A stretch of DNA of 57,946 nucleotides from Psammoneis japonica (Eukaryota): assembly GCA_008632985.1 (NCBI GenBank), contig QPGO01000318.1, positions 1-57,946 of the forward strand, read 5' to 3'. This document shows, in pieces, positions 4,148 through 46,940 of this stretch. The position numbers and the translations under genes are program-made. The stretch's first letter is position 1. Each line of letters opens with the position of its first letter. Below the pieces are notes generated by a model, which was not told the DNA's origin, did not search any database, and was given only the letters and a program-made list of their open reading frames with translations.

Positions 4148-6200
4148 CTAGATGATATGATAATAATATGGGAATTGATATGTTCTTTCGGACGATACTA
4201 GTTGCTTTTTTAATGAGTGTATTAGTTAGTCCCTCTCGTTTCCCGCTGTACCGAAGGTAAACCGAGCTGATGTAGTTGGACCGACGCTGAGCCTATGAAC
4301 CTATTCGATACTATGGAAGATTGCTGCTGTACTTTCTAGAGATTTCGTACAGAATAATGAGCTACACTATTGCTGTCTTTACTAGATACTACCTAATGTA
4401 AAATGCACTCCGCCTCGGTCTCCTTGTTGATGGAATCTAGTTGCCGTCCGCCAAGAAGAGGGCGAAGTCTGCAGATCCGTCATGGGTGCCGTCTGCGACG
4501 TCTTCCGCATCATCATCATCTTTCACGGTACAAAATCAAAAATGGAAGACGCTAAGCTTCCTTGTCCATGGCGACGATTCGGCTGTACTCTTCCCGTGTT
4601 AAGCCTCGATGGGTTTTGACACACACAACTTGGTGCAGCTGAAATCAGGCAGTGTTTTTGGCCATGGTGGGGCTGCTGTGCTTTTCACTTTTTTGGAGTG
4701 TGTGCTTTGAGTTTTCTCATTCTGTTGCATTGACACCAAGAAAGCACTGAGTGAGCACACAGCAAGAGATTTTGACATGAAAAGTTGGATTTTCAGTCAA
4801 GGCGACCCCCAACATGGTGAAGCACGGAGGGTCATTCTTTTCCCAGATTTGCGACACTCTGCATCCTGTCCAACTTGTGCACATCATGTCAGTGGGTCAA
4901 TGAATGTTTTGCATGCAACAAGAAGCACAGAGACATGTTGTTGGTGGTGTGTGCAGTCTCCAATGTGTGATGGACTCCCCCCTCCGTTGTCATGATGAGC
5001 GAGGTCTTGTTGTGTTCAGCATGCAGAGTCTGGCGCCATTTGTGCACACTCAGAAAATGTGCTGGGGATCAGAATTTTGGAAGCATGAAGCCCCTTTGCT
5101 CAAGTCTTGTTTGATTGCTCAGCCATTGCTCTGTGAAATGTGAAAATGACAAAAATGCAGCACAGCTGCAAGAGCTCCAATGTGACACACGAAAATCCTT
5201 CTTGGCATGTGTTGTTGAGCACAGAAAAACAATGCTGTTTGTTGCAAAACATCATTGTTGTTGTCTGCAATGGCCATGAACACCTCATTTTTGTGGCTCT
5301 GGTTTTGTGCCAAAGCCTGTGCGGCACACTCTCCATGATGGCACTGTGCACATTTGTGCTGAAGAGTCAGCACCAATTTCACGCACATGATGTGCACGCA
5401 CCTGCAGTTGTGCCTGGAGTTGCAACACACACCCTCTCTCTAATGTTTGCTGAGCAGCCGTCAGCACCCCAGTTGCACAATGTTGTCACAAGGAGCAGAC
5501 TGAGTTGCGCTGATGACAGTCAGTGGGCCTGTGCTGTGCAGTGGTTTTGCATCAGCACCCACCATTTCAGACTCGAAATGTGTGTTTGAAGAACTGCCCA
5601 GTGATGCTGCATGTTTGCAAGATGGCTTGTGCATGTCATGTTTCAGCAATCACTCAAAGCTGTGGTGCATGTTTGAGAAATTTCCCAAACAATGAGAGCC
5701 CCATTTGCTCAAACATGCCATGTTTGAGCAAAAGGTGGCATTTCAACAAAGTGCAACTCAAATGGCATCCTGCACAATGGCCACAATGGCCACAATGGTG
5801 GCACATTGTTTTGGATTTTTGTCATGCAAATTTGTGTGGTTTTGGTTTTAACAAAATGCCCACATGGTGCTGCATGTTCATTGCATCGCAATTTGGGAGA
5901 TCTTTTGCTGTGTGCATGCTGTTGTCACACTGGTGCCAAGACAGGCCTTGCTTCTAACTGCTGACCATGCAGGCCACCCACCTGCTGTGACCCTGGGCTG
6001 CCCTCTCGTGCAAAATTCCATGCTGATGCAGTGCAAAAAAAAAACTGATGTGTGGCACAAGCTCTTGACCAACATGCACACACATGATGTCTTTTGACAC
6101 GACCCCCCACAAAAACACCGGAGTGAACCCCAAAGATCAAGCTCAGCCATCAATTGCTCACTCCATCATGCTCTCTCTCTTTCCTTGCCATGCACTGTCT

Positions 6201-6608
6201 GATGCATTCCAGCTCCAGGTGGGACCTTGCACTGCCGCACTGTGACATGAGAGCTTTTTGGATTGTGCCACATGTTGTGTGCACACATTTCTGCATGCAA
6301 TCTTCTGCAAAATTCCTTCACATGCACCCCTGCTTTGCAAAGCCAAAGGCTTTCTTTTTTTCTCAACAGCAAAAACAAAAACAGGCTGGGTGCATTCTTT
6401 GACATCTGGAGAGCCCACCCAGGCAAACTGGAAATGATGAACTTCAAGTGTGGAGGAGGAGATGACTTTGCTGCCCAATTTTTGCCTCAATATCTGTTGG
6501 CAATTGTTCAGGTGTTTGTTGCTTGCTTGACAATTTTGCTGCAGAGCTCGCACACAGAACTCCATGGACCCATGTCACACAGAGCCTTGCCTGGGTCTGG
6601 AACATGTT
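6201..6608 (+). mobile_element. MITE copy 1 (TpA- and CpG-decayed)
   Basis: Colinear with 38030-38425 and 41132-41518. Ends are GATGCATTCCAG...CTGGAACATGTT, flanked by GTCT/GTCC (4-bp TSD with 1 mismatch). Confidence 0.85.
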
Positions 6609-7087
6609 GTCCTTCACAATGAGTCTCAGATGACTGACTGCCATGACTTCTGCCACATGCTTGCCAACCACCACGGCACAGAAAGCAATGCAACACCCAG
6701 CCAGTGCACATTGTGACAGGCAGAAGTTTCCACCAATGCAAAGGTGGCAACACCTGGGGAGATGTCAAGTGACTCACTTCAGAGCAGAGTGAAATGAAAG
6801 TCAAAGGCTGTGCTGGAACAAGATTTCTTCCCAACCAAGTCAATGGGATTTGCTCTGAGAACTTAGAGGCAAATTGCCAAAGAAAGTGTGACAAGGTTTT
6901 TGAGATTGTGGATCAGCAAGTTTCTCCAACTCTCTGAGGGGTGATGTCTTTGGGTTGCAACATCCAGAATGTGAAACATGCCAAGGAGAAATGTGCTGCA
7001 ACAAAGTCAGAGCTGCAGGGTTGGCACAGGGCACATTTGCCTGCAGCTCCCAAGGCAGCAACAGAAACATTTGAGCACCTTCCTGTG

Positions 7088-7090
<3 letters not shown>

Positions 7091-7137
<47 letters not shown>
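7091..7137 (+). repeat. (TC)n microsatellite
   Basis: Perfect TC run of about 23 units. Confidence 0.95.
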
Positions 7138-7142
<5 letters not shown>

Positions 7143-10100
7143 CTCAAGGCAGCTGAAGGACCAAAGCACATTGGTGCTGTGTGCTGGGGGGGGGNGTGCA
7201 GTGGCTGAAGATGCTCCACAGGGTGGGTCTGCTGCTGCTGGGCATGGCACCAGGCCAACCAAATTTGCAGGCACTCCCATGTCTCACTTGGGTGGAGGGT
7301 GTGACCTTGCTGGTCACACCTCATGAACAAATGACATCATTCTTGGCTGATCAGAAATGCACAGGTGAGCAAGCCAGAGACAAAAATGCGCTGCTGAACA
7401 AGCCAGCAGCAAAAATTCTTGGTTGAGCACAACAAATCTGTTGAGCACAACAAGCATCAGCATGCTCAGCTGAGCACAGCAAAGAACATCACAGGGGGTT
7501 CTTGGAGTCTGCCAACATGCCAGGCGCCACCTGTTGCCACACCCAAGAAAAACAACACAAGAGCAAGAGCAACTCACACAAATGACAACACTGGCATGCC
7601 AAATGGCAGAGACTCTGCAGAGAACAAAAGAAGTGGTTGAGATGCTGTTGTTGTCTTGTTTTGTGTTTTGTGGTGTTGGAAATGGCAAAGCACCGCACAC
7701 AAGTTCTGCCTGCTGTGACAATGACCTCAAGTGGTTGGGCCAGCACACAGAGTTGTTGTTCACTTTGTGCAGGGCTGAAAGGGACAAGCCTGCCAGCTCT
7801 TTTGTGCCATGCAGTGAGAAGCAGCATCATGGCTCCAACTTGCTTGATTGCTCCACAATGTGCAGCTGCTGGTCCTGGCTCATTTCTGTGCTCATTTCAT
7901 GTGAGTTGGAGGACCAGCCACAACTGTGGAAAAACTGGAAGGTGTCTTGACCAAAGTCACCACAGAAAAGAATGAAGTCATTCATCCCAAGCAATGTTTT
8001 CTGTTTGCCTGGAATCTCCTCAATGATCTCCTTCGCAACACCAACATCAAGAAAGAGGCTGCCTGTCTTGATGAGTGCAGAGCACACCTTCTGCAGCATG
8101 AGCACACTGGGGACAAATTCCTCAACAATCAATGAGGTGGATTCTCAACATCAAAGGTCTTTGAAACTTTTTGGCACTCTTTGGTTGGTGCAAAGTGGTG
8201 CCTCTGGCCATGAGAATGGTCTCATGTGAGCTTCAGCAATTTGCACTTTGGTGGGGTCTGTCAGGAAGTGGCTGCCCATGAACTGGAAAGATCCACAACA
8301 AGCCTTGCTCATTGACCCTCATCTTGTTTGAGCCAATGGCGGGACAGAACTTTTCACATCACAAGCAATCCCCCCAAAGTCTCTCCTGCAGTCTGGACTT
8401 CCATTGACACAACACAACAGCTGGGTCACACAGGACAGGTGGCAAACAAATCCACGACAAAATCTCCATCTGGCTTTGCAGCAAAGGGCCCAAAATGAAA
8501 ACAACTGTTCCTTCCTGACAACTTTTTTATCAAATCATGTTGCACTTCATTGTGTTGCTTTTTAGAAAGCTCCACAGAGATTGTTCTGCACCATCCCTTT
8601 AAAGCACTCAACACGCAAAAGTTTTCCCATTTCCTCTTGTGCTGCACATCACCAATGTGCTGTCTGGGAGTCAGCTGTTGCAAATGCCTTTTTAAACCTG
8701 ACTGAGATCTGGCCACTCCACAAATGTGCAGCTGGGTTTGGGATTCTTTTTTGCTGCTTCCACAACAGACTGCAAGCACCACAATGAGCTGCAAGCCACA
8801 ACCTGTGAAAGAAAATGATTGAAACAGCAAATGAAGGAGAACAACACTGAAAACTTTGCTGCTTGACACAAGAAGTGGTGCACTGGTCTGATGCTCAAGA
8901 AAAGATGCTTTGTTCACAAGTTGGTTTTTGACAAGAACACATCAACATCAACATGTCTGTGAGCAGAGCTGTCATGGCCATGATGTGTGAGTTTCTTGTG
9001 AGTGTGCAAAATTGTTTTGCAAGGTTGTGGCATGCTGTGTGTGTGTTCATGTTGTGCCAGCCTCTGTTCTTTTCTTCTTTGTCCTGTGCTGCAGCAATCT
9101 GAGAGAAGCTCATTGGCACCAAATGGAGAGTGGATGATGGTGCAACTCTCAAGAAGCCCCAACCCCACTGCACTGGGCTTGTTTTGAAAGAGCAGCTGGT
9201 TGTGATTTTTTTGTCCAACAGCCCCCACCCATGCTTCTTGCTTTTCTAACTTTCATTTCTCTAAGAACCTGATGGTCTTCTCTTTTTTGGTGAACAACCA
9301 GGTGTCCTCATGTGACGCGGCACACTTGGCTCATTCACAAAGCAGAAGCTTTGAAATTTTGGCAGACTGGCTTGAGGGTGAACTTTGACTCAGATGAAAT
9401 CTGGGTCATTTGTTTGAACTTTGGTGCAGAAAGAAGTGCAACAGTGCTGCTGTGACAAAGGACAAAGATTGCTTCTTTTCACAGCTGACATCCCAGTGTG
9501 CATGCAAGGTGTTGCACTCAGGAAACATGCATTGCAGGAATGAAGTGTGGTGCCAGCACTTGGCTTGTGCTGTTTTTGTGATTTGACAACACGCTGGCAC
9601 TTGGCACAAACAGAAACAGGTGTCAAGGTGGGTTTTTGGCAAACACTCACACCAGCTGCAGCTGCTTGCTTTGCTCTGCCATCTGATTCAAGATCTTCTT
9701 GACCACATGCCACACAGACTCCATCTGGGAGAGAATGGTGCCTGGAAGAAGTTTTTGGCAATGTGCCAAGCATCAAGCAAACCACTGAATTTGTTGGAGA
9801 GCTGAAGAGTGAGCATCAGAGACAACAGCTTGTGAGTCATCAGAGGTGGAGAAACAAGTTGTGCCCCCACAGATGCACCTGCATGCAGGCTTTTTTGTCT
9901 GATGTTTTTGTTGTCATGTGCCACCTTGCCAAATGCACCAACTCTGACACAGAGGCAGAGGAAGTCATCTTCATGAGGACATTTCTGGCAGTGACAACAA
10001 CTTCTTGTCCAGCAGAATTTGCTCATCCCAGAAAGATCTCCAAATTGTCACAGTGGTGCACCCTGCACTTGTGCAGTGCTCAAATGAACATGCAATGCCT

Positions 10101-11464
10101 TCTCCACCTGGGTGAAAAAGATTGTCACTTTCTTTTCCAGAGCAACCTGCTGCCAACACTTTTGCTGATTTCCAAAGCACCTGCCCTCTGACACCTCTGC
10201 TGGATCATGCTGCTTGGGTTGCATGTTGTGTTGCTGGCATTTTCATTTGTAAAAGTCACCAGCAGCTGTCATCACAACATTGTTCATGTGAAACAAATGG
10301 CAAGCATGGCCAATCATTGTGATGTCCATTGCACGCAATTGTTGCACTTGAGAAATTTGAGTGGAAAATGCCCCCAGCACAATGTCCACACTTTCTCCCC
10401 CCTTGCTCTTGCCCCACCCAACATGGGCAAAGCAACACAATTTGTCCTGTTCTTGCTTCTCATCAAGAGGAACTTTGTGAAGGAAAGTCAGTGTGCCGAC
10501 TCTTAGCTGCTCTTTGATCTGGGATTGCACAGGAAAACAATGGCAGCAAAAACATTTGACACTGGTGCAGTGGGCTGGCAGTTGAGCACTTGTGGGGTGA
10601 GCAGCAACGAGCTTTTGTTGCTTGATTTTGATGCTTGTTGGGGGTCGTGCAGGGTGCCCATCCAGGGTCCTTGAGTCAGGGCTGGTTGTTTGAAAAAGAG
10701 ACTTGCTTGCTGAAACTTGCACTTCTGCCAAAAATCAAAACTTTTGTGGGCCCTCAATGTTGGTGCCACATGCCACCAGCAGACCTCATTGGTTTTTGGA
10801 CCATTGCAGATGGGCATCTCAACCCACCCACTCTTTCTGTTTTTCATTTGTTTTGCCTTGTTTTTAAACCCAAAGAAACTCACAAACTTGTTTTCTCCTT
10901 GTCTCACTTGAAAATTTGGGAGAACAACAACTGCTCCAACACTTTAGGGTCAACAACAAGAGCCAATCATGCTTGTCACACAACAAGCCAGCCTTTGTGT
11001 GGGAATTGAAGGATCAGCTGGTGGAACAGGAGACAGCCAAATTGACCCCAAAAGCAGGTGCCATCACTTTTTGTGGCTGCTGTCAAGAAACGGCTGAAAC
11101 CCAGCTGTGCATGGCTGACAGAAAGAGGCCGCACTGGCAATGGCTGCAAGGTGATGAATCCCATGAAAGCCCATGCAGACACCATTGCAAAGGCAATGGG
11201 CAAGTCATCGAATCGTCCAATGTGTCAAGGAGGGGCCCTGCAGTCCACCGGGGTGCTGACATTCTAACACATTGTGCCCAGCCCGGTGCGCTAAAAAAAT
11301 GCACACAATTGATTTGTGCCTCAATTCGTTTTGCAACAGTTTGCTCCTCATCAATTTCTCAAGGTGAAGAGACAAGATCACAACAAATGCCTGCAGTGCC
11401 TTTGCATGCATCTCTGCAGCAATGCAGCCCCAACCTCCACACATCGGGCATCCAACGCAGTCGC

Positions 11465-12868
11465 TCAGGATGGGCTTCCTTCCCAATCCGCCTCACCCAA
11501 ATCATCTTCATCAGCGTCGGCCTGGGCTCTCAGACTCTCATCATCACTTTCAGAGTCTGCGCAGGAGTCTTCATCGCTTCCACCTTCCATGTCACTTCCC
11601 TCATCATCTCCTTCAAAAGCTTCTTGAATGCCGGCAATCTCTTCCTCAAGGGCAGCACGTTGATCCCAAAATGCAGCCACGCGAGTTGTCGCCCACATGG
11701 AGAACACTTCGCAGGTTTTCTCGGGGACCACGCCAGCCCCCGCATCAGATTTTTTTTGTTCATCTGAGAGCCCAACAATTTTCTCAAGGGAATCTTCCTC
11801 TTGTTTCAGCTCAGCCTGCTGTTGCAAAAGTGGCCTGATCGCTTGGACAAAAGGCACAGTCGCCAACTTTGGAAGATCGTTGTTCACCTTGACGTGTGCA
11901 GCTTCGGGACATGCTTTCAACATGTCAATCACGAGCTCTTGGACTGGTCTCCTGTTGCATTGGCGGGCCAGGCAATGAAGTGGCAGTCTGCCCCCTCGTC
12001 GTGCCTTGGCACGGACAGCCTCGGGATTCTCTTGCATGAAAAAGCGGCAAATGCTTGCCCTGTTCTCCGTGCATGTGTCCACACCCATTTCATGGTGAAC
12101 AGGTGAAAGAGACTCACAGGCACAGCACAAAGCAGTCTGTCCCCACATGCCACAATGTTTCAAGCATTCGGGATGCTTCTCAACCATCCATTTCACCAAG
12201 CCTAAGTCACACTCTTCCCATCCCGAAACAACATCTTGCAACATGCCTGGGAAACATTTGTCGAGAGCTGCAGGCAGCAACTCCAAGACTCCACAAACAA
12301 CGGATGCCTCACAATCTCCATTGCCACAGTGTCAAATGAGGCCACATTCAAGTGTTCTGTGGTGGTCTTGAATGATGGTCGGGTGCTCAAAAATCCACAT
12401 GTGGCTCCGAGCAATCCAGGGCATCAAAGCACAATGTCCCGAGGCGATGCATGCCAGAGGGAAGCATTTGGAGCCCCATTTCCACAGCAAGGCATGCGGG
12501 TTGACATGGATCAGAAACTTGATGGCCTCATGAAGAATGGGATTCTGATGAACGCTCTCGCAAACCATGGTCAGCAAAGACCATCCATTTGCATTTTCTT
12601 GAACAGCTCCTCCGAAAATCAATCTGTTTTCTCCATTGCAAACAGCTCTTGCGAGAATCGGTTCATTGGCGACTTCTTGTGCGATGAGATTAAGGATCTG
12701 CTCTCCTGCTCGCTGGATTTCTTCCCGCACGTTGTTGGCTCAGAGCAAGATGAAGATGCGATCAAACAAATGCACGAATTGATTGCGCAGTTCAACTGGC
12801 AAATCTGAGTGACAGACAGGCTCTTGCACGTCTCGCCCTTGCTGTTCTCCGGTGCTTTCATTGGACAC
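11465..12868 (-). pseudogene. Pseudogene of an ankyrin-like (LPLH-repeat) protein with acidic C-terminus
   Basis: Three in-frame ORF pieces are separated by TGA at 12740 and 12332. Motifs GQTALCCAC, RLPLHCLA, EKHPECL and KACPEAA are present. No Tyr occurs in the 273-aa or 132-aa segments. Confidence 0.7.
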
Positions 12869-13765
12869 AGTTGTTTGGTTTGAGGGTGGATCTACGTGCT
12901 GCAGTCTGTTTTTTGGGAGCTCGTAATTTTTATAAAAATGACCCGGATGCATCGTAGCAAATGCGCGCGCTTTCGCAAAAAAGAAATTCAGCGATCGGTC
13001 GAACTTTGTCCGTTCGCCAGACACCCCAGAATGCCCAAACGACAGGTGTGGCCATGCGCAACTTTTACCTCAATGACTGCAGACATGTCTGTAGCCAGTC
13101 AAATGCCACTTGTCGGCATTTCCCAGAAAGTTGCCGCTAATCTCCCACAAGAAGCCCGATTTTAGCGAAAATTGGCAGTTTTTTCGACCTGACAACAGGG
13201 CATGGGTCGACAAGTGGCATTTGAAGCACCAAATGTGCAGCTCTTATAGCTGTCTAACAGCCCCTGTGAGGGTTTGACGAACACATAAGTGTTCGAGGGT
13301 GTTCCGAGGCAGGTCAAAATGACACGGTGAAGTGTGGGAAATGCGAGCCATTTTAAATTAGACCGCAGCACGCAGATCCATCCTCAAAACAGCGCAAAGG
13401 CCACTTGGACTCGTTGATTCTGTTTGTTCGTTTGTGTTAGGAGAGGACGGGGGTGATTCGATCGCAACAACAACAACAACAACAATGATGATGGTGGCAA
13501 CGGCCAAAGTTTTGAGTTTTGGGGTTTTTTCTGCGGGAGAAAAGCAGCCGCGCGCCACGCGCGCAGCGCCGCGCCCGAGCGCTCCTGTCCGTCACACGCG
13601 ATGAAGCAAAATAACCTTTTTAAATAGGTACGTAGATATGAATGAACACAAGTATCATTTAAAATACTTCGTGAATGATGAATGGCATTGATTTCTGCCG
13701 ACCTGTTGAACCGCAACCGCCCACCGCGAACAGAACAAAACACTGACACTCGATACACTCGCGAT

Positions 13766-13838
13766 GACACCCGAGAAAGCGACAGCCGTCTTTGCTTGTA
13801 CTCTAACCTGCCTTTCAGTTTTCCTTACACCACTACAG
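13766..13838 (+). repeat. 73-bp dispersed repeat, copy 2
   Basis: Matches 1529-1601. Confidence 0.9.
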
Positions 13839-13921
13839 CACGATTAGCCCGTTTGAGGAAGCTGCTTCATGTCATAAACTGAGTGGAGACTTTCGTTCTC
13901 CTTATTTTATTTTCTGAAAAA

Positions 13922-33111: not shown

Positions 33112-34249
33112 ATGCCGCTCGTATTGGGTGGCTTGCTATTGGTGGTGAACGTAGGCCACACGGTCTTTGCTCAAATGGCAGCCAACGACGACGGCAGTTT
33201 TCCGTTTCACGAGTCGTCGGCCGTGTTGGTGTCGGAGTTTGGTAAAATGATTCTCGCCATGGTATTGTTGGGGAGAGCGTACAGAACTACATCTTCAAAT
33301 TCTACTACTGCAATGACCGGGAAATCTCAAATTCACTCTGACCCGACAAATCATTGCGGAGATGGCTGTTCCCGGCATGCTGTACACCATGAGCAACATT
33401 TTGAGTTACACAACGGTGGGCTTGTTGGGATCTACCAATTATCAATTATTCAGCAATATCAAAATTGTCATTACAGCCGTCACCTTTCGATTGATTCTCC
33501 AGAAGCGACTCAAAGTCATTCAGTGGGTCTGTCTTTTGTTCTTGACCACGGGGTTGTTGGTTGCCACGACGGGAAACAACAACACGAGTGCATCATCCAG
33601 TAACAGCAACAACGATATCAGTTACTACGACAAGTCGCGACTGGTGTCAGGCTTTGTTCTCATGGTATTGCTCAGTTTAGCCAGTTCGTTTGCCGGTGTC
33701 TTTTCAGAACTCAAACTCAAGCAAGCGCCACAACACCCCATGCTTCAGAACGCCCTCATGTACGCCTGGTCGTGTGTTTTCTGTTTGGTGAAGTACAACT
33801 ACAATGCCAGCAAGTTGGATGGAGGATTCTTTCAAGGATTTTCATGGCCGCTCTGGGGAGCCATTTTGACGACTGCGATCTACGGACAAGTCGTGGCGTT
33901 GATCTTTTACTATTGTGACAATATCGTCAAGGTCTTTGCCAACAGCGCCACCGTCATTGCATCCGCCTTGGTGGATCAAGTACTCTGGAAAAAGCCGCTC
34001 ACGATTCAAATTGGTATTGCCGGTAGCATCATTTTTTGTTCCACCGTCATTTATTATGGCAATCATTCGCTCTTGCTGAGTGATGATGTACAGTTTTTGG
34101 AGAATCACGTGCGGCGATGGACCTCGCCCTTGCCGTTGCACAGTACTGCCGGCAAGCGACCATGGTATTCGCGGGCCCGCACGCTTTGTCTGGCGGGTAT
34201 CATTTGTTTGTTTCCTTGTCATTTTCTCTCTTTTCAAGCACCGAGGTGA
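33112..34249 (+). CDS. Nucleotide-sugar transporter (SLC35A-like), frameshift at ~33330
   Basis: SAVLVSEFGKMILA, MAVPGMLYTMSN, YQLFSNIKIVITA, SSFAGVFSE and YCDNIVKVFA. Confidence 0.88.
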
Positions 34250-35172
34250 TTGCTCCGCCCGTCGCAAGCAATTCATTAACGGAAATGCCGCTCCCCAAGG
34301 ACAACATGACGCACAATTCGCCCTGTGACTGGCCGCCTCCGCTTTATCATCCCTACAAAAACAACAAGCCCGATGACGGTCTTATCCAAGCCATGCAAAC
34401 GGCCAAACGCTTCTTTGATGAGCATCCCGACACGACCTTTTCCTACATTGATAGTGGAGGCGCCCTCGGTGCCTACCGCGATGGCAGTCTCATTCCGGGA
34501 GACTCGGATTTGGATGTTCGTTTTGGCATTTGCAGAAGTTGTGGTGGCAGCGACATTTCCCTGCCAAAACTCAATTCGTCCTTTATATCCGCCAATGATT
34601 ATGCCGTGTGGGGAGACGTTTGGACACGACGCCAAATTGTGATTGAAACTGACGCGCTTCACGTGCAACAGGTAAAGCGCGACTTGTGTTTGCACGAGTA
34701 CGCTCCCGGACAATCGTATTGGTTTCATCGTTCTGCCATGCAACGACGAGCCTTTCAATACACCTATGGCGACTTTTGGTTTGTGAGAATGCCTTGGAAA
34801 GGAATGCACAATGTGGAAATGTGGAACAATTACGCGAAGACCAACAAGAATCATGCCATTCCACCACCCGACGGCTTTCAGGCCAATTGGGACAAGAGTA
34901 TTGAACAAATTACAAAAATGGATACCAACAGAAATGGGGAAATATCGGAAGCAGAATTGAAAGCCCGTGTCTTGGCGGATGGAATTATTCCGCAACGTTT
35001 TCAGACTCAAATTTCATCACGAGAGCGCTGTAGGGCGGCAAAGATGATGAGCTTCTTGTTGAAGTTTAACGCTGAGCCCTTTGTTATTTCCAAACCGGCT
35101 AATTGTTTTCTCGGGTGCTTGAGTAATGCCGATCACCCCTTGTTTCGATTTCCCGAATGTAATGGAAAATGA
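34117..35172 (+). CDS. LicD/fukutin-family nucleotidyltransferase domain plus EF-hand; probably the C-terminal part of the transporter gene
   Basis: IDSGGALGAYRDGSLIPGDSDLDV fits the LicD consensus G.LLGA.R....IP.D.D.D. FQYTYGDFW and EF-hand DTNRNGEISEAE are also present. Confidence 0.75.
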   Translation: MDLALAVAQYCRQATMVFAGPHALSGGYHLFVSLSFSLFSSTEVIAPPVASNSLTEMPLPKDNMTHNSPCDWPPPLYHPYKNNKPDDGLIQAMQTAKRFFDEHPDTTFSYIDSGGALGAYRDGSLIPGDSDLDVRFGICRSCGGSDISLPKLNSSFISANDYAVWGDVWTRRQIVIETDALHVQQVKRDLCLHEYAPGQSYWFHRSAMQRRAFQYTYGDFWFVRMPWKGMHNVEMWNNYAKTNKNHAIPPPDGFQANWDKSIEQITKMDTNRNGEISEAELKARVLADGIIPQRFQTQISSRERCRAAKMMSFLLKFNAEPFVISKPANCFLGCLSNADHPLFRFPECNGK

Positions 35173-35560: not shown

Positions 35561-37750
35561 CACGCCCATCTCATTCTGGGCAACCCAACTGCGGCACTGT
35601 TGACAATGTCTTGCACATTTGCAATGCAAGCAGACCCGTCTGCTCCCCCTTTTGTGAATCCATGTCCTGCTTTAAGGACAGTCAAGAATGGACATGCTTT
35701 GGGGCTTGCACATGTTTGGTCATGATGCTGCGCTGGGCACAGCAGGCTGGGATTTCCGCCGCCAATTGAACTTGCACATTCTGCAATGCACCAAGTGGCT
35801 TGTCAGTTGGGTTGCTCTGGTCAAGCCAAGAAAATGGGACAATTTCAAGGAGAACACCAACCCAGCTGTGCAACACAACTGGGTGCAGACAAGAGAACAA
35901 TGAGTGTGAGCATGGGCACTTTGTGCCTGCCAAATCAATGCTGCTGGTGGTCACATCTGAGAATGACAACTGTCCAGGTCCGATGCCCATCTGTCTGGCA
36001 CACCTTGGGCGCAAATTTCCAAACTTCAACAAGTCTGAAGCACATTGGGAAGCTCATCTCTCCTGGTTGCAGGCAAGAACAGGTCAGCATGCCGCTGACA
36101 GCATCGCCCACAACAGCAACAGTGCCAGTGGACGGCATGGTGTCACTTGCCAGCCCACAGCTGACCAAACTGCCAATGATTCCTGATGCAAGATCTAGAG
36201 CCAACTGTGGCATGACAGCTCCACTTTTGACAATTCTGCAATTTGTGCAGTGACATGGCATGTCTTGAAGGCTGGAGCTCTGCTTGGAACTTTGTTTTGC
36301 AGATGGTTGACCTGCATCAAATTTCACTCATGATGGCAAGCCATTTAATTTGGAAGTGGCATGCACAACTGCTCTTTCTCCATGGTGATGTCTTCCTTGG
36401 CTGTGTCAATGTCAGGGCATCTGTCTCTTCATTGCAGTGCCTGGCATGCCTTTCCAAGGCAGATGCTTCTGGAGCACATTGCACAGAGCTGTTAGGTGTG
36501 TTGCCCGATGTTGCGGGCCACCTGCTGTGCTTTTCTGGCAGCTCCCTTCTCAATTGAGCAAGCTGTTTGCTCTTGCTGATGAACTCCAAGAATGAAGCTG
36601 GCTCCACTCAATTGTCTGTTTGTTCAAAAAATGCAATGAGATCTTTTTGATGATGCCAAGAACATCTCTTGTGGCTGCCATGTCTTCACAACATTGCACT
36701 GCACTTTGAGCAGCCTTGCAGCACTTGCACCAGCCAGCTGAACAAGGAAAAATGATGCGACACTTCTTCTTAAAGGGGCAGAAGAAGTGGGGCCTTCTTG
36801 AGCTGGCCAAAGCTCTGAAAATGAAACCCTTTGGCTTTTGCACTTGCACTGTCAATGCTCACAACAAGTGAATGATCACGCAAGGCAGGAGAAAAAAAGC
36901 AGGCCAAAAGGGGGTGGAGATTTAACCAAGACAACTTTGCTCTGTTGGCTGTTTGCTTGTGAGCTGCCACCAGCATCCTGCAACAACAGCACTTTGTCAA
37001 TGGCAGTGTTGTTGCTCTTGCATTTCCAGATGGACAGCAACATTTTGCTTGCATCACACTGGGTGGCACAACTCCATCATCAACAACAAGATTGTGGTGC
37101 TTCATTGTCATTTCTGACAACTCAAAATCTCCAGCCAGCTCTCCTGCAAAGTGAGTCATTCTCACCATTGTTTGCATGAGGCTCAAATTGCAGCAAAAAT
37201 AGAAAAGATTGTTGCCACCACAACCCACAACAAAACAGACTGCAAGTTTGTGTGCTGAGGTCCACCACAAGGAATTGTCTTTGCCAACAGAGTTGTTGTG
37301 ACTTGACATGAGTGGAGTGTGCAGGTGTGAAGTGCTCTCCTTCTCTTCTTGCTCTGTGACAGCACTGAGAGATTTTGCTGCTGTTTTGTTGCTGCAACAA
37401 TGGCAATGTTTGCCAGTTTGTGTTTCCGACACTGCCCAAGTTAAAACCACATTGACGCAAATCATCAGAACATTCGGTTGAGAGAGGCGCACACGAAAAT
37501 CCCGCATTTTTGCCTCTGAGGCACAGTGCAGCACAGCACTCAATCAGGAAGGGGTTGTCCAGTGCCCATGCACTGCCAAGGCACAAACAACAAATTGTGA
37601 AGGAGGAGACTGCCATGCTGAGCAAGGGCAATCATCTTGCTAGAACCCCACCACCCATTTGAACACACCACCACCACGACAAACAAACTTGTCCCCCTCC
37701 TGCTTGACTCCAACTCGCACAATTAAGTGCTGAGATCCATCCACAATGAA
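35561..37750. pseudogene. Hypermutated inverted duplicate of 48390-50553 (3' parts of the aspartic protease and phosphatase/LRR genes)
   Basis: Colinear reverse-complement match. Donor gtatatttacaatgcgag becomes gcacatttgcaatgcaag, and donor ELAGDVELSE becomes ELAGDFELSE. The donor intron is retained. Confidence 0.93.
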
Positions 37751-37759
37751 CCCCAACAC

Positions 37760-37990
37760 ACAAGGTTGACAATGCTGTGTGGGTTCTACTTGGCAGCCAC
37801 GAACACCTTTCTTTTCTTTTTTCAGTGGTGGATTTTGCACCAAATCTTGCTCCACACAAAGAAATCGCCCTCGCTCCAAATTTTTTGACATTTTTGCCAT
37901 GCACACAAGGTTGACACTGCTGCGCAGATTCTTTTTGATGGCCGCGAACACCTTTCCTCCGTTGCACCGTGGTGGATTTTGCACCAACTT
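37760..37990 (+). repeat. Degenerate tandem pair with a ~144-bp period
   Basis: CACAAGGTTGACA...GAACACCTTTC...GTGGTGGATTTTGCACCAA occurs at ~37760 and ~37904. Confidence 0.75.
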
Positions 37991-38029
37991 TCTGTGCACA
38001 TCATCCCAGTGGCTGCGCATCATTCCCAC

Positions 38030-38425
38030 GACGCGTTCCAGCCCTAGGTGGGAGCTCGTAGTACTGACGTGTGACAACAACAATTTTTATCATCCGTCGT
38101 ATGTTTCGTACGTAGATTTCTACGTGTGATATTAAAAAAAAATTGTCCAGACTCGCTGTTTTGCGAAGCCCCAGAAGTTTTATATAACAAATTTATAGAA
38201 ACAATAATGCGCCAGTTACATTCTTCAATGTCTGAAGAATGTAACTGGCTAAGTAAAAAATGATGTACTTCAATCATGTGCGAGTTTGTGCGTTCGCAAA
38301 ATTGCCTCATTTTCTGTTGGCGATCATTGACATTTTAATTACCGTATAATTTTACTACGGAGCTCGCACGTAGAAGTCTACGGGCCCAATGTCACACGGA
38401 TTCCCACCTACGTCTGGAACGCGTC
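38030..38425 (+). mobile_element. MITE copy 2 (not TpA-depleted), inserted in the 5' LTR
   Basis: 24-bp imperfect TIRs GACGCGTTCCAGCCCTAGGTGGGA and TCCCACCTACGTCTGGAACGCGTC; TSD CCAC on both sides. Confidence 0.92.
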
Positions 38426-38512
38426 CCACTTAGACTGGGATCTCTGTCAGGTTGTGAGCAGCGTTTGCGCTTTGCGCAAATGAGGCCCCTCCACCGACCA
38501 ACGACTTGACAC

Positions 38513-40979
38513 ATGCACTCCTCTCTCTTGTCATCAATGCCACCAAAGACCGCTTTGCAAGCAATTTTTGCCGCCATTGTGACAGCAACGTCTCTGCCGC
38601 AAGCGCTCCTCATTCTTGCGCCATTGTCATTTGCATCTGCTGCTGCCACTGCAGCTTTCGGCATCGGCTCTGCGCACGCATTTTGTCCAGTGCGCCTCCT
38701 GACACCTGTTGCCCTCCATGCTGCACAGCCCCAACTCCGCATCTCCAACACTGTGGCGCCTGCGGAAAGCACCCGTTCTAAGACGGCCTCGTCTTGGTGG
38801 GAACGGATGTCCAACCTCCAAGCGGCTGTCTCTCCCAATGCAGCATCTCCTGAAGCTTCGTCCACTCCTGCGGGCACCCCATCCATGAGAGCATCTGTTG
38901 TGGCAGCTGTTCGGGATGCTCTGCAACCTCATGCATCAACTGCTGCTCCAGTTGATGCGATGGCAGCAACTTCCCCACCTGCACCTGTGCAACAATCGGC
39001 TCCTCCTGCAATCTGTGCCCCGCCACATGACACACCGGCACCATCGCCTCCACCTTGTTTGCCTCCTCCTTCAGCTCCGAATTGGCCTCACTCTCCTCCG
39101 GTCCCCAATGAGGAACTTTTGTGGGGCTGTCGGGTTCAACTGGAAAATGATGCAGTGCAACTGCATGACACCCAAACTGCACACACCAATGCTGCCACCA
39201 AAATCTGCTCTCTTCACAGCAAGGTGCAGTCCCACCGTGCCCTGACTGAACAGACCCGAATGGATGTGACAAATGTTGCGACCACCAGTGCCATTGATGC
39301 GCCAAGCCAATCTCTGGAGAAACAGATGCAAGCCACCAAAGAGGAGGCTTTGGCAATGGCTGGTGACATCACTGACTCCACCATTGCCTCCCGAGACAAT
39401 CAATTTGTTCAACTCTTGGATGAAAATCTTGCACCTTGCATTGCCGAAATCAAAAACGAGATTGATGCTTCTGAGGCCACCGTGCTGCAGCACCTGAAAC
39501 GGACCTCCCAAGATGAAGAACAATGCATCACCGCAGTCACTGCTTCCCAGATTGAGGCATTGGAAACGGCTGTCTCCAATGCAACACACACCCTGGGAGA
39601 ACTCGCTGGCTCTGCTCACACCAATTTTCAAAACCAGATGCAAGGTGATGTCACCAAACATGCAGAAGAGTTTGACATTGATCCTTGCTTGATTGGATGC
39701 CACTAAAGCTGCAGCCAAAACCGTCATTAAAAACAGCCTTGAAGTGGCGGCGACCATGACGGGTTCACTTGAGGACTGTGAGAAACTGCTCCCTTCCCCC
39801 TCCTCTGACACTGCTGCTGCGACTCAACTCCTGGCGGCTAAATGTGTCATGCAGGATGACCTTGCAGACACCCTTCGAACAGAATTCGATGGCGTTAATG
39901 CCCAGCTGCTCGCCCAAAACAACTCCATCCGATCACAGGAGGAACGTGTTCAGACTGCTGCCAAAGTCTCTGAGGCTGCTCGTTGTGAAGTCTCGGGCAT
40001 TCGGAAGGATCTCCAGGCTTTTAAAGCATCTGCCCCACCACCCACCACCCCATCCTTCCCTGCGGGCCATGCAATGTCGTCTCCGGACCCGTCCGATGGG
40101 GCCAGTGCTCCAGATCCTGACAGCATTCCTCCCACCCTTGCAGTGAAACTCACCACGGTTTTGGACAACATCATCAACCGTCTCCCTGGTGCCAATCCCA
40201 CCTCATCCTCTTCTGGTTCACCGTTGGCCTCACTTCTCTCGTCAGGTAAATCCTCTGGCTCCTCCAGCTCTGAACGGTGCCACAGCAGTGAAACGTTTCG
40301 CGAGACCCCGGGCCCCTGTCTCTGAACTGTGGAACCATCCGATGTCGTCACGTTCCTGAAGGCCTTCCACACTTGGTGCACCCAGACGGGTGTCCCCATG
40401 CATGACCCTGACACCCTTGCAAGGGATCAATCAGATTTCTGCAACCCCATGCTCGTCAGCACCATCCAACGCCAGAAGTGCACCATTGACATTCATGCCA
40501 AGCTGATCCAAGATGATGTCCTTCTGGATCATTGCCTGTGTGATGGCTGGAAGAAGATCTGCACAGCTTCTGTGGATGGCCATGCCATTCTGTCTCATCT
40601 GGCCGCCATTGGTCTTCCAGCACTCACCGGCAAAGTCGCTGAACCTCCTGCATGGAAAGGTGGCCTGTGCGAACTTGTTGCAGATTTTACCACCTTCTTT
40701 GCAGTGGCCGATGTGGCGGCTGCCACAGTGGATCCGGCTGCACCTCCGGCGCACTCGGACAGGAACAAATCTGTCAAGTTGCTGGACTCGATTCCGGACG
40801 GCCTCTGTGAATTGGTCCCCCTCCTCAAACACTGCCTCCGTGAACTTGGAGAATCCTCCCCACCACCACATGACCTGCATCTTGTCTCCTTGATCACTCA
40901 GATTGATCCAAAACTTGCCTCCTCCTCGGATCCAGCCGGGTCTCTTCACGCATTCCGAGGCCGCTTGCAACGCCCATGA
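38513..40979 (+). pseudogene. Disrupted gag-like region of the Copia element
   Basis: Long Pro/Ala-rich and coiled-coil ORF pieces directly after the PBS. All pieces are Tyr-free. The assignment is positional. Confidence 0.55.
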
Positions 40980-41131
40980 CCCTCGTCTTCTACGGACAGA
41001 CAGACACACGCATTTCAACATCGCAAGGACCTTGTCTGGGATGCTTGTGGTGCATTCGGACGTGGCCACTGTGATTGCTCTCAGCTTGCTTGTCATGCTC
41101 TGCCAATGGATTTTGTCAAGAACCACACGGA

Positions 41132-41518
41132 GACGCATTCCAGCTCTGGGTGGGACCTTGCACTGTTGAACTGTGACACAATCATTTTTTGTCATCCGTC
41201 GCATGTTTTGCACACACTTGTTCTGTTGTGAAAAATTGTTCCACACTGCCTGTTTTGCGAAGCCAAAGGCTTTCTGCCATCTGTGTTTGTGACAATAAAA
41301 ATGCACTGGGTGTGTTCTTTAACATCTGAAGAACACACCCGGACATGCTGCAAAGAATGTGCTTCAAGTGTGGAGGAGGAGACACATTCGCAAAATTGCC
41401 TCTTTTTCTTTTGCAATCATTGATGTGTCCATTGCTTCACAATTTTACTGCGGAGCTCGCACGCAGAATTCTGCGGGCCCAATGTCACAAAAAGTCCCAC
41501 CTGGGACTGGAACCCATC
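41132..41518 (+). mobile_element. MITE copy 3 (TpA-decayed, CpG partly kept), nested in the Copia element
   Basis: TIRs GACGCATTCCAGCTCTGGGTGGGA and TCCCACCTGGGACTGGAACCCATC; TSD CGGA at 41128-41131 and 41519-41522. Confidence 0.9.
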
Positions 41519-42122
41519 CGGACAAAGTGTCTTCCATCATCTCCAAGTGGCGCTCACACAACCAATGTCACAAGGACACACCGCGTCCTGTGGTGCGTGC
41601 CTTCTCATCCGATGCGTCGGACAAGATTCTTGATTTCATGATGGACGAAGCCGCGTCTGACCTGCTGTTTGAGTCCAACGCATCCCCGGATTTTCAGTGA
41701 GCCAACTGTGTCCATCTCCCACTCACAGCGAACGGCTTCACAATGACAGCGGGGCAGATGATCGGGGCACTTCCATGCCTCTGCCTTCCGCTGAACCACC
41801 GATCCCTCCTTTGACATGTCGATCTTTTGCATCTGCGATTCCTCTGCCTGCTGAACTTCCCGACTGGACTCACTTGGGCCGACCTCCCAATCTTGTCTCC
41901 ACCAACTTGGACTCTGCATCATCACACTCCATCCCCGATGATGACTCCTTGTCCATCTCTGACGAATCCTGGGCCACGGCTGTCAAAGAGTTTGCCGATG
42001 ACCCCACGGCTGTGTTGCGTTGCTTTGATTGTCAATTTGAGTCTGCGGAGCCCCCATCTCCACCGCTGCCCATCACCGCACCCCATGACTGTGTCTCCCA
42101 ACCACCACAGGCAACTTCTCCC

Positions 42123-42713
42123 ATGGAACTCACTGGATGCAAGGACTCTGATTGGGCCGCTGACATCCGCCACCGACGCTCCAATGCTGGCATTGCCTCC
42201 CCACTTGCTTGCGCCGCCATTGCTTGGAAGACACGAGTGCAACCCTCCACATCCACATCATCCTCAGAAGTGGAATTCACCGCTGCCTTGGATGCTGGCA
42301 AGGTGGCTTTGCACCTTTGCTCAGTCCTCGATGAACTGCCCGTGTCGCAAACACAGGCTGCCCTCACGTGCGAGAACAGCGGTGCATCTCGGATCTCTCG
42401 GATGATGGCCAACGCCAGCCAACCCACCAGACGGACCCGCCACATCGACATTCGCCACTTTGCACTGCAGAATTGGGTCAAACAAGATCTTGTGCACATG
42501 GAAAGGATTGACACTGCCTCGAACTGCAGCGACACACTCACCAAGAACGTTCTGCGCATTCTCTTCTTTCGACATTTGGGCACCCTCACTGGACGTCATC
42601 CCCCATCCTACGTTTTAGATAGCAGCAACGACACGCCACTACACTGTTCACTAGAAGAACAGTGCTCCCACGGTAGATGGGCTCACCATTCTCCTAGCAT
42701 GGGGGGGTCTTAG
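42123..42713 (+). pseudogene. Copia RNase H domain remnant
   Basis: LTGCKDSDWAADIRHRRS...IAWKTRVQ...SSSEVEFTAA...TRHIDIRHFALQNWV...NCSDTLTK. Confidence 0.9.
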
Positions 42714-43856: not shown

Positions 43857-44634
43857 CTAGATCAACGAGCGCCTTGTTTTTAAATCATCGTCGTCATCCT
43901 TTTCCAGTTTAATGCCATAGTCCAATGCAAACAATCGCTTTTGCAATTGTTGTTCCACTCTCCCACTCCAACGCTTGTTCGGATTGTCTTCACGTTCAAT
44001 GTCATCCATTTTACCGGCGCCGTCCACAAGTAATCTCATAAGCGGAGAGCAGTTACTTCGACTCTGCGGTGGTCCTATTGAGCATAATAATACGGTAGAG
44101 AAGAAGGATTAAGAACAAGCTAGAGTACGTGCACGTATCCAGCAACGAATCAGCAGGACGACGCGTACCTGTTTCACAGAGTCGGTCAAAGATTTTGTCA
44201 ACATGTTCTTTTGAATACCTTCCATCTTGTAGGCGCTGCATCACTTCCTCCACAGTATTTAATATGTCTGTACTTTCGTCAATCTTGAAATTCACAAGCA
44301 AATCGTTTATCCATCTATCAACTTTCTCTTCTTCCTTTTGTAGCTTTTGCTTTTTCTCTTCCTCTATTGCCTTTTGCAGCGACTCTGCTTCTGCTCGGAG
44401 AGCATTTGCTTGCTCCTGAAGAGTAGTAACAGACATGACAAGAGCTGACGATGACTCTGTAGTGATATTTTTCTGCAGACTCTCCATTTCGTCTGAACTA
44501 GCCGCGACGAAGTGCGTCAAGGGTCGACGCCGGTTAATTGCGTGATGGAACAGCCCACGTTGAACGAGCAGCGCCCTAGCATCCGGAAAGTACACAAACA
44601 GAAAAGGAAGACAGAAACATGTTGTTCTTAGCAT
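43857..44634 (-). CDS. Uncharacterised two-exon protein with signal/transit-like N-terminus and coiled coil
   Basis: ORF 44053-44688 is joined by a probable GT-AG intron (~44168-44064) to SRSNCSPLMRLLVDGAGK. Confidence 0.6.
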
Positions 44635-44829
44635 CACGGCAATAACAAAGCACAAACAGTGCTGCGGCGGAGGTTTGGTATGATACACCCATCGAAGGCC
44701 ACGCCAGTCAGATTGAGAATCCCGTTCTGCGCCAAGTTTTTCGGTTCGGCCACAACGGTATGTTGGCGAGTGATCGAACTGATCCGCTAAGTCGTGTTCT
44801 GCAAACGTTTACGCCAACCCGAGTCGTGT

Positions 44830-46940
44830 TTCACTTTTAACAAGATGTTCCGCAGGTGGGTGGAAAGCCTTCGGAGCACCCTTCTGTTGATTTGAGCCCA
44901 CTCTTCACAACAAGGCTGTTGTTTGTTGCACTCAGCAGCACAAACATTGGGTGGGGGTAATTTGCCAACAAGGTGAGGGTGAGCAAGCATGGGTGAATCA
45001 TTGGGTTGGTGAAATCTCTTGCTGTGCCAACAACGCCAAAAAAAGAGCGCTGGCTGCAGAAGCTGCGCTGTCTCTTCCTGCCTGCAAATGCTTTCATTGT
45101 CAATGTCTTCTCAAGAAGTGCAGTGAAAGAGAATGTCATTTGGCAGATCAAGGCTTTGCTCAGGCCAAATTGAGAAGACACAAGTGTGTCATCACAAAGA
45201 ACAGACCGCAGCCAGCGCCGCCATTGTCTTTCTTGTGCAGAGCTGTTTTTGGAGCATGTTCCTGCTTGCTCTGAATGAGTCCAGACACTCCATTGTTTTT
45301 CTGTCAGCATGACAAAGTCAAGCAATCAGGCTCTCACATTGTTCCAGAGAGATGAACCTCACCTGTGGTGTGTCAACAATTCTCCATTGTGACAGCAGCA
45401 GCACCACCAGCTGCCTTGACAAATGTGAGCGGTGGGCCAGTCATCCACGCCACCCATTGCTGTGGTTCCTTGCATGGGTGGGTGATGTTGCTGTGAAGAA
45501 GAAGAACCCAGCAAAGGTGCTGATGCCAGCATGGCCTTGGCTCTGCAGTCTGAGTGTGATGGGGTGCCCGTGCACGGAAGATTTTCCTGCCAAAGCCACA
45601 CACAACCCAGTGTCTCCTGCCACCCCCTGAGATGCTCTGAGAAAGTCATGCAAACACATCATGTGCTTTTGCATGCAAAACACAAGGTCTGAGAGTTGGT
45701 GTTTGTTTGTCTGCGATTGCCCCCCACCTTTCCATGAATTTTCTGCACCAAACTGGTGCCACAGTTTTTACCACAATGCTGCATGAAAAATGATTGATGG
45801 TTGAGAGAGCTGCTGCTTTTCCCCAGAGCTTTGCTTGCTTGCAAAAAAAAAGGCCTTCAAAACAAATTTGGCAGTGCCTGACAGTCACTTGCCATTTTGA
45901 GCTCTGAGCTGCATGAGGGAAGCATGGTGGAATCTTCTGCCCACCCCATTTTTCAGATTTTCCATCATCATCTTCTCCACGCAAAACAAACTGTCTGAGA
46001 TCTGAGAGCTGTTGCAAGGAATTTTGAAAAACTGACTTTCAGCAACCTGGGCTTTATGTTTTTCTAAGGCCAGCAGCTCAGAAAGAAGCTGCACATTCTC
46101 CTTGTCTTTGTTCACGTGCTGGGCCTGCTGCACCTTGCCCTGTGATGCTGCAGCAAAACATTTTGCATTTTGCCTCCCCTGAGTGATGCCCCACTGTTGT
46201 GATGGTTGTTGTTGTTGCTGACAGGTTGTTTCATGAAAAAACCATTTGTCCAAGCTCTTCTCTTAGAGAACTCACAAGGAACAAGCTCTGAAGCTGCTGC
46301 TTGCAGCTCTTTTCTTTGCACAGGGGATTCCAAGCAATGCTCACAACTCTTGCACAAAGCTCTCCTCATCTTGACACATTGACCAAGACAGCAGTTGCAT
46401 GGCCTTCCCACTTGCCAACAACAAGAAGCAGGTGCTGACAACAAAGCCTCACCTTGGTGGAAGAAAACAAACAAAACAAGTGGCATGACAATGAGCCATG
46501 CGTTCTGTTTGCAGAAGAGGTGTGATGGTTTCCTGCTCCAGCCACCATCACAGACAGCCTTCTTTGGCACCATGTCATTCTCTCTCCTGGCAGACAAGCA
46601 CGCATGATCTGAGCAGCAACAAAAGTGCATGTGACAATTCTGTGTCACAATTTGTGAAGTGATTCGCAACAAGCAACAACATCATGTTCACAGCTTGTCT
46701 CAAATTGCAGAGAAAGGCGCTGCAATCTGAAAGGGCTGTTTTTTGTTGTTCTTTCTTCTTGCACCACCCATGCACCGCAGCAGCAGTGTGGTTGCATGTG
46801 AGAACACCACTCATTCTCCCAACAAACACAGCTCTGATGCAGCTGATGGTGGTGGCTGCAAGACCATTTGTCCTGCTGGGCGCAGTGGTGAGGCCAACAG
46901 TGAGCGCGGACAGAGAGGGTGTGCCGGAGGTTCAAGGGAT
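44830..46940. other. TpA/CpG-depleted block D (unidentified degenerate DNA)
   Basis: TA is nearly absent except in TTA/TAA contexts; overlapping Tyr-free ORFs occur on both strands. Confidence 0.85.

Follow-up and report, generated by a model that had tools for sequence, protein, structure and literature searches.

Region-restricted TpA hypermutation of transposon relics and duplicated host DNA in a contig of Psammoneis japonica

Introduction

What kind of process removes almost every TpA step from some stretches of a genome and leaves the genes next to them with an ordinary composition? The question is raised by a stretch of Psammoneis japonica DNA from contig QPGO01000318.1, which is 57,946 nucleotides (nt) long, is referred to here as the window, and is the stretch within which all the counts on blocks given below were made. 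Five blocks of the window are nearly devoid of TA. Their content is relics of transposons together with duplicated DNA of the host, mutated in place by a process that is both persistent and restricted to these regions. The process does not extend past the inserted or duplicated DNA, and it spares the functional parent of the duplicate. It runs beside the ordinary decay of CpG to TpG/CpA and is separable from it.

Extent, composition and borders of the TA-poor blocks

Segmentation of the window with a two-state hidden Markov model (HMM) over pyrimidine-purine (YpR) steps delineates five blocks, located at 4610-12887, 30298-31579, 35567-38027, 38507-42542 and 44853-46901, with a sum of 18,106 bp. 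The blocks contain 51 TA, 331 CG, 1980 TG and 2006 CA dinucleotides, corresponding to observed/expected ratios (o/e) of 0.04, 0.30, 1.84 and 1.69 respectively, and the near equality of the TG and CA counts (1980 vs 2006) indicates an overall strand symmetry. GpC is raised in the blocks (1.26) and ApT is lowered (0.82). The 39.8 kb outside the blocks has 1577 TA (o/e 0.57) and a CG o/e of 0.99. When the composition is followed in 500-bp intervals, the TA o/e is 0-0.18 in the blocks and mostly 0.4-0.9 in the flanks, with TG and CA at 1.5-2.2 in the blocks. The longest runs without any TA are 1664, 1163, 988, 925 and 911 bp in the blocks as against a maximum of 182 bp outside them, the median spacing of TA in the window being 16 bp.

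The borders of the blocks are sharp. At all ten edges the composition shifts inside a single 150-bp bin, as exemplified by the left edge of block 1, where 4460-4609 has 4 TA and 13 CG and the adjoining 4610-4759 has 0 TA and 0 CG. The blocks are also poor in CpG, within the same edges as for TA. An initial annotation of the window had described TA-poor blocks beside flanks of normal TA content, and the HMM recovers them at nearly identical coordinates, with TA o/e of 0.04 vs 0.57. It had counted four blocks; the coordinates hold, and the third block is found to be interrupted at 38029-38502 by 474 bp of normal composition (31 TA, 31 CG), an island that brings the number of blocks to five. The loss of TA that it reported likewise stands, while the depletion of CpG in the same blocks had been understated.

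Block 1 (4610-12887, 8.3 kb) has 19 TA, 97 CG, 932 TG and 946 CA. Its CpG o/e is 0.10 over 4610-10900 and 0.50 over 10901-12887, with a TA o/e of 0.03-0.04 in both parts. The block includes one N, at position 7195. Block 2 (30298-31579, 1.3 kb) has 4 TA, 14 CG, 140 TG and 137 CA, and is delimited by the HMM and by its edges, as is block 4 (44853-46901, 2.0 kb; 5 TA, 20 CG, 238 TG, 226 CA). The two parts of the split third block, referred to as 3a (35567-38027) and 3b (38507-42542), lie on either side of the island. Block 3b, 4.0 kb long with 54% GC, has 12 TA, 169 CG and a CpG o/e of 0.59.

Public reads are available in three runs, all from one sample and one study. Contigs from one of these runs, X1, cover all the 30 bins into which the window was divided at a depth of about 40-65, the blocks being present at a depth like that of the flanks (about 57). 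The X1 contigs have 0 differences from the block sequence over 36140-37067 and 37241-38058 (929 and 818 bp), and they span 45049-47931, thereby covering block 4. Since the X1 contigs reproduce the block sequence, an origin of the blocks as artefacts of the assembly is argued against.

Direction of change in duplicated host DNA

The direction of the change can be read from a duplicate that has its parent in the same window. The parent copy (48403-50650), identified by Pfam and by alignment, comprises the 3' parts of two convergent genes, one for an aspartyl protease and one for a purple acid phosphatase, together with the spacer between them. Its TA and CpG contents are normal and its coding frames are intact. 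Comparison of the window with itself by blastn identifies 35.6-37.8 kb as an inverted duplicate of 48.4-50.65 kb, so that block 3a is a duplicate of host genic DNA over about 35570-37758. The homology stops no more than about 50 bp from position 35567, the edge of the block. The coincidence of the end of homology with the block edge implies that the mutated state tracks the inserted DNA and has not spread into the flank.

The alignment of the duplicate with its parent has 2465 columns, comprising 1549 matches, 556 mismatches, of which 379 are transitions, and 360 gap columns. At the 96 parental TA steps the block copy has TG in 38 cases and CA in 36 (74/96 together), and only 3 are kept; the commonest among the other fates are AA (5), TT (4) and TC (3). 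The block copies have thus undergone TA to TG or CA changes, i.e. A:T>G:C transitions at TpA on either strand. Counted per site, A>G is found at 83/188 adenines in TpA vs 127/845 elsewhere (odds ratio 4.5, p=6.5e-17), an enrichment by which the initial annotation had proposed that its claim could be judged. Outside TpA, A>G is found at 53/303 adenines in ApA, 43/279 in CpA and 31/263 in GpA. The CpG component is seen in the same alignment: 73 of the 108 parental CG have become TG (43) or CA (30) and 8 are kept, with C>T at 83/205 cytosines in CpG vs 75/695 elsewhere (p=7e-20).

The consequences for coding are consistent with this spectrum. All the 17 tyrosine codons of the parent are lost in the block copy, where 9 have become cysteine, 6 histidine, 1 aspartate and 1 a stop, and the block copy read in the parent's frames has six in-frame stops among the 409 codons compared. 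Parental TG is replaced by CA at 17/143 steps, and parental CA by TG at 15/152. Swaps at about 10% of the steps are expected, by our arithmetic, from a background of about 0.1 transitions per site that makes new TA or CG steps, which then resolve either way. On the basis of this swap rate the process seems to have continued to act over a long time.

Preference for the base following the target adenine

The changes at TpA in the duplicate also depend on the next base, with A>G at 30/55 TAC, 27/57 TAT, 15/36 TAG and 11/40 TAA. Adenines outside TpA in the duplicate are also changed more often before a pyrimidine than before a purine. The same order emerges from the TA steps that survive in the blocks. 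Writing Y for pyrimidine and R for purine, 37 of the 51 surviving steps lie in YTAR as against 245/1577 outside (p=1e-18), and the survivors, with the density in normal DNA set to 1, amount to 0.004 for RTAY, 0.032 for RTAR, 0.037 for YTAY and 0.33 for YTAR. Among tetranucleotides the survival is 0.53 for TTAA and 0.38 for CTAA/TTAG, with 0 of 143 for GTAC and 0 of 243 for ATAC/GTAT. Survival is thus roughly multiplicative, as would result if the adenines of the two strands were attacked independently, each attack needing T before the A and preferring a pyrimidine after it. The order at the +1 position, TAC~TAT>TAG>TAA, is new to the current analysis.

Direction of change in MITE-like repeats

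A second line of evidence is provided by a repeat family resembling miniature inverted-repeat transposable elements (MITEs). An unmutated MITE-like element of 396 bp is located within the island (38030-38425, forward strand). It has normal TA and CpG, 24-bp terminal inverted repeats (TIRs) that match at 22/24 positions as judged by eye, and CCAC on both sides. The summed depth of X1 contigs on this repeat is about 2e4-5e4, compared to about 57 in the flanks, which implies that the family is very abundant; it has probably been active recently. Two old mutated copies of the element, both on the forward strand, were identified by self-blastn and compared with it in a three-way alignment. The copy in block 1 (6200-6610) has 19 of the 30 aligned TA sites of the island element changed, 10 to CA and 9 to TG, and the copy in block 3b (41129-41518) has 23 of 29 changed, 14 to TG and 9 to CA.

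Other contents of the blocks

Relics of a retrotransposon and of a gene family are also found in the blocks. An open reading frame (ORF) at 41673-42698 is similar to Ty1/copia polyproteins (best E-value 3.7e-49), with PF07727 present on all the 50 matches listed. Ten of ten copia polyproteins used as tblastn queries map only at 42051-42626 and only by their C-terminal part, so that the relic (forward strand) corresponds to the RNase H end of the polyprotein; the block ends at the end of this ORF. The loci in metagenomes that encode copia relatives have a TA o/e of 0.59-0.99 in 80/80 cases. As this search requires intact peptide motifs it is blind to hypermutated copies, and it gives no measure of the frequency of the process. 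In the relic itself only 4 conserved tyrosine columns can be followed, of which 1 is kept and the others are cysteine, histidine and phenylalanine, one each.

The region 11468-12331 on the reverse strand of block 1 is a pseudogene-like copy from a family of proteins of 400-500 residues with a weak similarity to ankyrin. With phmmer it has 210 matches at E<=1e-3, the best with an E-value of 5.8e-49 and 45% identity. The copy has 0 tyrosines as against 2.8% in the homologues, and 5.9% cysteine as against 2.9%. In the only 4 conserved tyrosine columns 0 are kept, with 1 histidine, 1 cysteine and 2 leucines in their place. The targets identified are hence a copia relic, MITE-like relics, a gene-family pseudogene and a host gene duplicate.

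DNA without TA lacks the stops TAA and TAG and so gives rise to long false ORFs. The 18 kb of blocks has 146 stop-to-stop ORFs of at least 70 residues, some of them up to 398 residues long. A Pfam search of these 146 ORFs assigned 0 transposon or viral families and gave weak matches, below the curated cut-offs, for six ORFs; the silence of Pfam is attributed to mutational damage. A tblastn search of the blocks with 156 ORFs from the normal DNA of the window retrieved only the duplicate already described and the MITE-like repeat. No content was assigned to block 2, block 4 or most of block 1 by the Pfam and homology work in the window.

On these points the initial annotation is borne out. It had read the change as TA to TG/CA, which the gene duplicate (in DNA and in codons) and the MITE-like copies confirm and with which the small numbers of tyrosine columns agree. 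It had named transposable elements and duplicated DNA as the targets. It had also recognised that its proposal would fail if intact members of the element families were themselves free of TA, and this is not the case, the MITE-like element of the island and the copia loci being normal.

Relation to CpG decay and to repeat-induced point mutation

The CpG>TpG/CpA component of the blocks, which accounts for the 73/108 parental CG of the duplicate, behaves as decay by deamination of 5-methylcytosine (5mC) does. Deamination of methyl-cytosine usually removes CpG fastest where it is flanked by A or T. In the blocks the survival of CpG is 0.12 in TCGA, 0.15 in ACGA/TCGT and 0.58 in GCGC, the loss being fastest at A/T-flanked sites. 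Deamination of 5mC is, however, limited to CpG and cannot remove TpA, of which the loss is uniform. All the blocks have a TA o/e of 0.03-0.07, and their CpG o/e varies between 0.10 and 0.59; a uniform loss of TA together with a variable loss of CpG implies that the two losses are separable, as had been claimed in the initial annotation.

GC-biased gene conversion has also been considered and is ruled out. The GC content of the blocks (45.6-54.2%) overlaps with that of the flanks (44.0-48.9%), and the excess of A:T>G:C is bound to a sequence context.

Fungal repeat-induced point mutation (RIP) is a known system to which the blocks bear a likeness, in that it makes transitions specific to a dinucleotide, affects only repeated or duplicated DNA, has sharp borders and disables the copies. 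The direction is the opposite. RIP converts CpA to TpA, mutating C/G pairs, whereas in the window TpA is destroyed and A/T pairs are mutated, as the initial annotation had noted. RIP creates TAA and TAG stops; the process in the blocks removes them. RIP mutates both duplicates, whereas in the window only the block copy is hit and the parent at 48403-50650 is untouched. The excess of TpA by which RIP is recognised was not found in the blocks, where TpA is nearly absent and CpA/TpG are in excess.

Comparison with Bigelowiella natans

The initial annotation had stated that no eukaryotic system with this spectrum was described. That statement has to be withdrawn, as the main text of a bioRxiv preprint by Mettrop et al. 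(10.64898/2026.01.13.699255) reports the exact spectrum in Bigelowiella natans. According to that text, an integrated giant virus (a nucleocytoplasmic large DNA virus, NCLDV) and a virophage are hypermutated in mutation-accumulation lines of B. natans, where 230 of 231 de novo mutations are A>G or T>C, all at TpA, at a rate of about 6e-7 per site per generation, which is about 1000x the background and is seen only in some of the lines. It further describes in the B. natans genome 124 clusters that are poor in TpA and rich in CpA and TpG, with reverse transcriptase (RT) and DDE domains enriched in the TpA-poor coding sequences (CDS), and names an ADAT2-like adenine deaminase as the authors' candidate (10.64898/2026.01.13.699255). 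The terms 'CpG', 'trinucleotide' and 'diatom' do not occur in the main text of the preprint; its supplements may hold sequence contexts.

The footprint and spectrum in the window are of the same kind as the TpA hypermutation of B. natans. As far as the main text of the preprint describes them, the two cases share the A>G/T>C changes at TpA, the confinement to regions with normal flanks and the TpA-poor clusters rich in CpA and TpG, and the RT- and DDE-rich TpA-poor CDS there have their parallel in the copia and MITE-like relics that are hit here. They differ in degree, the NCLDV region of B. natans having a Rho of 0.45 in that text and the blocks of the window being near saturation (TA o/e 0.04). 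In the window host gene duplicates are hit as well, the decay of CpG is co-located and the hierarchy at the +1 base is resolved. The Pfam search of the 146 block ORFs detected no viral genes. The organism there is a rhizarian, in which de novo events are reported in the main text, and the window, from a different organism, preserves a long-term footprint. The blocks thus represent a second, saturated instance, from another lineage at the level of supergroups, of a kind described once, in 2026.

A search of the literature revealed no natural case beyond the B. natans preprint, and none in diatoms or stramenopiles. When a paper on the retrotransposons of Phaeodactylum (PMC2806351) was searched by term, RIP, deamination, dinucleotides and hypermutation were all absent from it.

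Proposed mechanism and alternatives

The explanation that we favour as a whole, with somewhat more confidence than doubt, is a persistent, region-restricted mutation of TpA acting in place on relics and duplicates through adenine deamination targeted to heterochromatin. An A that follows T would be converted to G on either strand, giving TG or CA. The mutagen would be a DNA adenine deaminase of the TadA/ADAT2 type or another enzyme of the deaminase fold, and the hypoxanthine that it made would pair with C. The deaminase could be recruited to methylated or heterochromatic repeats. The identity of the enzyme, the hypoxanthine intermediate and the recruitment, taken jointly, are suggested by sequence features, and we consider the chances of this combination to be about even. 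Copies would be disabled by the removal of all tyrosine codons, of all regulatory words that contain TA and of the TA/TTAA target sites of transposons.

The natural substrate of ADAT2/3 is tRNA. Adenine deamination is favoured because the changes are almost pure transitions, the base at -1 is strict and the order T-A-Y>T-A-R is like that of TadA editors. DNA editors derived from TadA are described as having an inherent preference for YAC and a hierarchy of YAY>YAR (PMC12528748). Deaminases of the TadA/ADAT2 group and the DNA editors made from them are described there as converting A to inosine (I), read as G, with a pyrimidine (U/T) before the target, as in the blocks. The resemblance of TadA/ADAT2 to the process in the blocks is one of sequence context only (T-A-Y>T-A-R).

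Several points weigh against this explanation. The deaminase step is drawn from the spectrum and context of changes in the window DNA, and the targeting of silenced chromatin is inferred from the co-location of CpG decay. In sequence data an A>G change on one strand is a T>C change on the other, and a route through a modified thymine would fit the same numbers. The two old MITE-like copies have an identical outcome at 13/17 TA sites, which implies that part of their load is older than the split of the copies and was inherited by them, not acquired independently. The untouched MITE-like insert within a mutated zone implies either a very young insert or an episodic process. The tyrosine columns of the copia relic and of 11468-12331 have changed in the expected direction, and with 4 columns each they are too few to count. 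Lastly, the initial annotation had looked to independent reads for confirmation of the blocks; run X1 does reproduce them, but it may come from the assembly's own sample, and the read support is to that extent not fully independent.

An unlikely but credible alternative is an error-prone patch repair coupled to the deamination of 5mC, in which T:G mismatches arising in methylated repeats would call in mismatch or excision repair, and the gap would be filled by a polymerase similar to polymerase eta that mis-inserts opposite T at WA motifs (W denoting A or T). The coincidence of TpA loss and CpG decay in the blocks and at their edges is what such a coupling would predict, and restoration of T:G to C:G would allow the loss of TA to exceed the net loss of CpG, as in 38507-42542. 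Polymerase eta, which acts in phase 2 of antibody hypermutation, has a WA motif with hotspots at both AA and TA and makes a mixture of transitions and transversions. In the duplicate, ApA is no hotspot (53/303, close to CpA and GpA), and transversions at TA are rare, with 74/96 going to TG or CA. The B. natans events, 230/231 of them transitions and all at TpA in the main text of the preprint, are likewise cleaner than the spectrum of polymerase eta.

It is also possible, and in our view rather improbable, that thymine is the base attacked, through oxidation of T at TpA in silenced DNA by an enzyme of the TET/JBP type to 5-hydroxymethyluracil (5hmU) or a further modified base, which would mispair with G or provoke faulty repair and so give T>C. 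5hmU in dinoflagellates has a bias to TpA. The A-centred motif has as its mirror image T>C at TpA where a purine precedes the T, and all the counts fit this version equally well. The hierarchy at +1 matches that of TadA-type DNA deaminases and would favour the A-centred reading, by resemblance only.

Hyper-editing of A to I in double-stranded transposon transcripts, fixed through reverse transcription, is very improbable. ADAR-type enzymes do prefer U before the edited A, as mentioned in the Discussion of the preprint (10.64898/2026.01.13.699255), and one of the blocks carries a retrotransposon relic. But no passage through RNA is expected for a genomic duplicate of two convergent gene ends and their spacer, or for MITE-like copies bearing TIRs; the outcomes are strand-symmetric, contiguous blocks with several elements are in the same state, and in B. 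natans the events arise in situ according to the main text of the preprint. Equally remote is the absence of any mutation process, i.e. an artefact of assembly or base calling at modified bases or a TA-free origin (foreign DNA or selection). In its favour it could be cited that the only runs containing the stretch derive from a single sample and a single study, and against it stand the identity of the X1 contigs at a depth like that of the flanks, the indels and other substitutions that the block copy has relative to its parent, and the normal TA of the intact relatives.

Implications

The known mutators of genome defence, RIP and APOBEC, target cytosine. For cellular hypermutation of A:T pairs in resident DNA the only other description found is one preprint of 2026. 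Occurrence in a second major lineage, and in a saturated form, argues for a widespread process over a quirk of a single strain. The range of targets is widened beyond viruses to ordinary transposons and host gene duplicates, and the sharper T-A-Y motif is usable for choosing and testing candidate enzymes. We tentatively raise the possibility, which we regard as more doubtful than probable, that a heterochromatin-targeted 5'-T-A-Y DNA adenine deaminase is an old genome defence of protists of the SAR clade (stramenopiles, alveolates and rhizarians), shared by rhizarians (Bigelowiella) and stramenopiles. If true, it would be a mirror image of fungal RIP, in which an A-to-G editor directed at dsDNA or chromatin rids transposons, integrated viruses and stray duplicates of genes of their TA for good. 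A natural sequence-specific mutator of DNA A to G would be relevant to genome evolution, to epigenetic silencing in algae and to base editing. For annotation the blocks are a trap, as TA-free DNA gives long false ORFs and true domains escape Pfam.

Variation among reads and other features of the window

Where X1 contigs depart from the window within the blocks, 12 differences are listed, and 7 of them are swaps between TA, CG, TG and CA at one step (TG vs TA, CG vs TG, TG vs CA), at positions 31064, 31257, 38557, 38563, 39495-39496 and 39501. They hint at a process that differs between haplotypes or between paralogous copies, as the contigs may be paralogues. Over 1.75 kb of a nucleotide-sugar transporter gene (33362-35111) an X1 contig and the window disagree at 21 positions, which suggests two haplotypes or strain variation.

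None of the runs with the stretch is listed as RNA. Another run, X2, is labelled 'DNA?' and behaves like RNA. Its contigs cover 14/30 bins, none of them wholly in a block, and this absence of cover is no evidence of silence. One X2 contig omits 71 bases of the aspartyl protease gene (48088-48158), as a spliced transcript would.

A direct repeat of 73 bp with 97% identity is present in DNA of normal composition at 1529-1601 and 13766-13838, the latter copy being about 0.9 kb past the right edge of block 1. A tRNA scan of the window gave 0 genes and Rfam 0 matches, so the repeat is neither a tRNA nor an Rfam match.

The forward strand at 53952-56645 encodes an uninterrupted ORF of 897 residues similar to LonB/LonC proteases. 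Its named relatives, from planctomycetes and other bacteria, share about 54% identity with it, and the best unnamed one 64%. The gene, though present in a eukaryote, may have come from bacteria. For none of the proteins of the window does the protein collection contain a near-identical entry, which makes the sequenced B. natans strain a very unlikely source. The Atlas clusters closest to an ORF of no assigned function are mostly from Bacillariophyta, a weak lead. With the matches of the HMG-box ORF described next, this points to an ochrophyte alga, probably a diatom. An ORF of 702 residues on the reverse strand (17428-19536) has four HMG boxes, with internal DNA repeats at 17905-18913. Its only relatives are 23-46% identical, and the best named matches among them are from diatoms and one pelagophyte.

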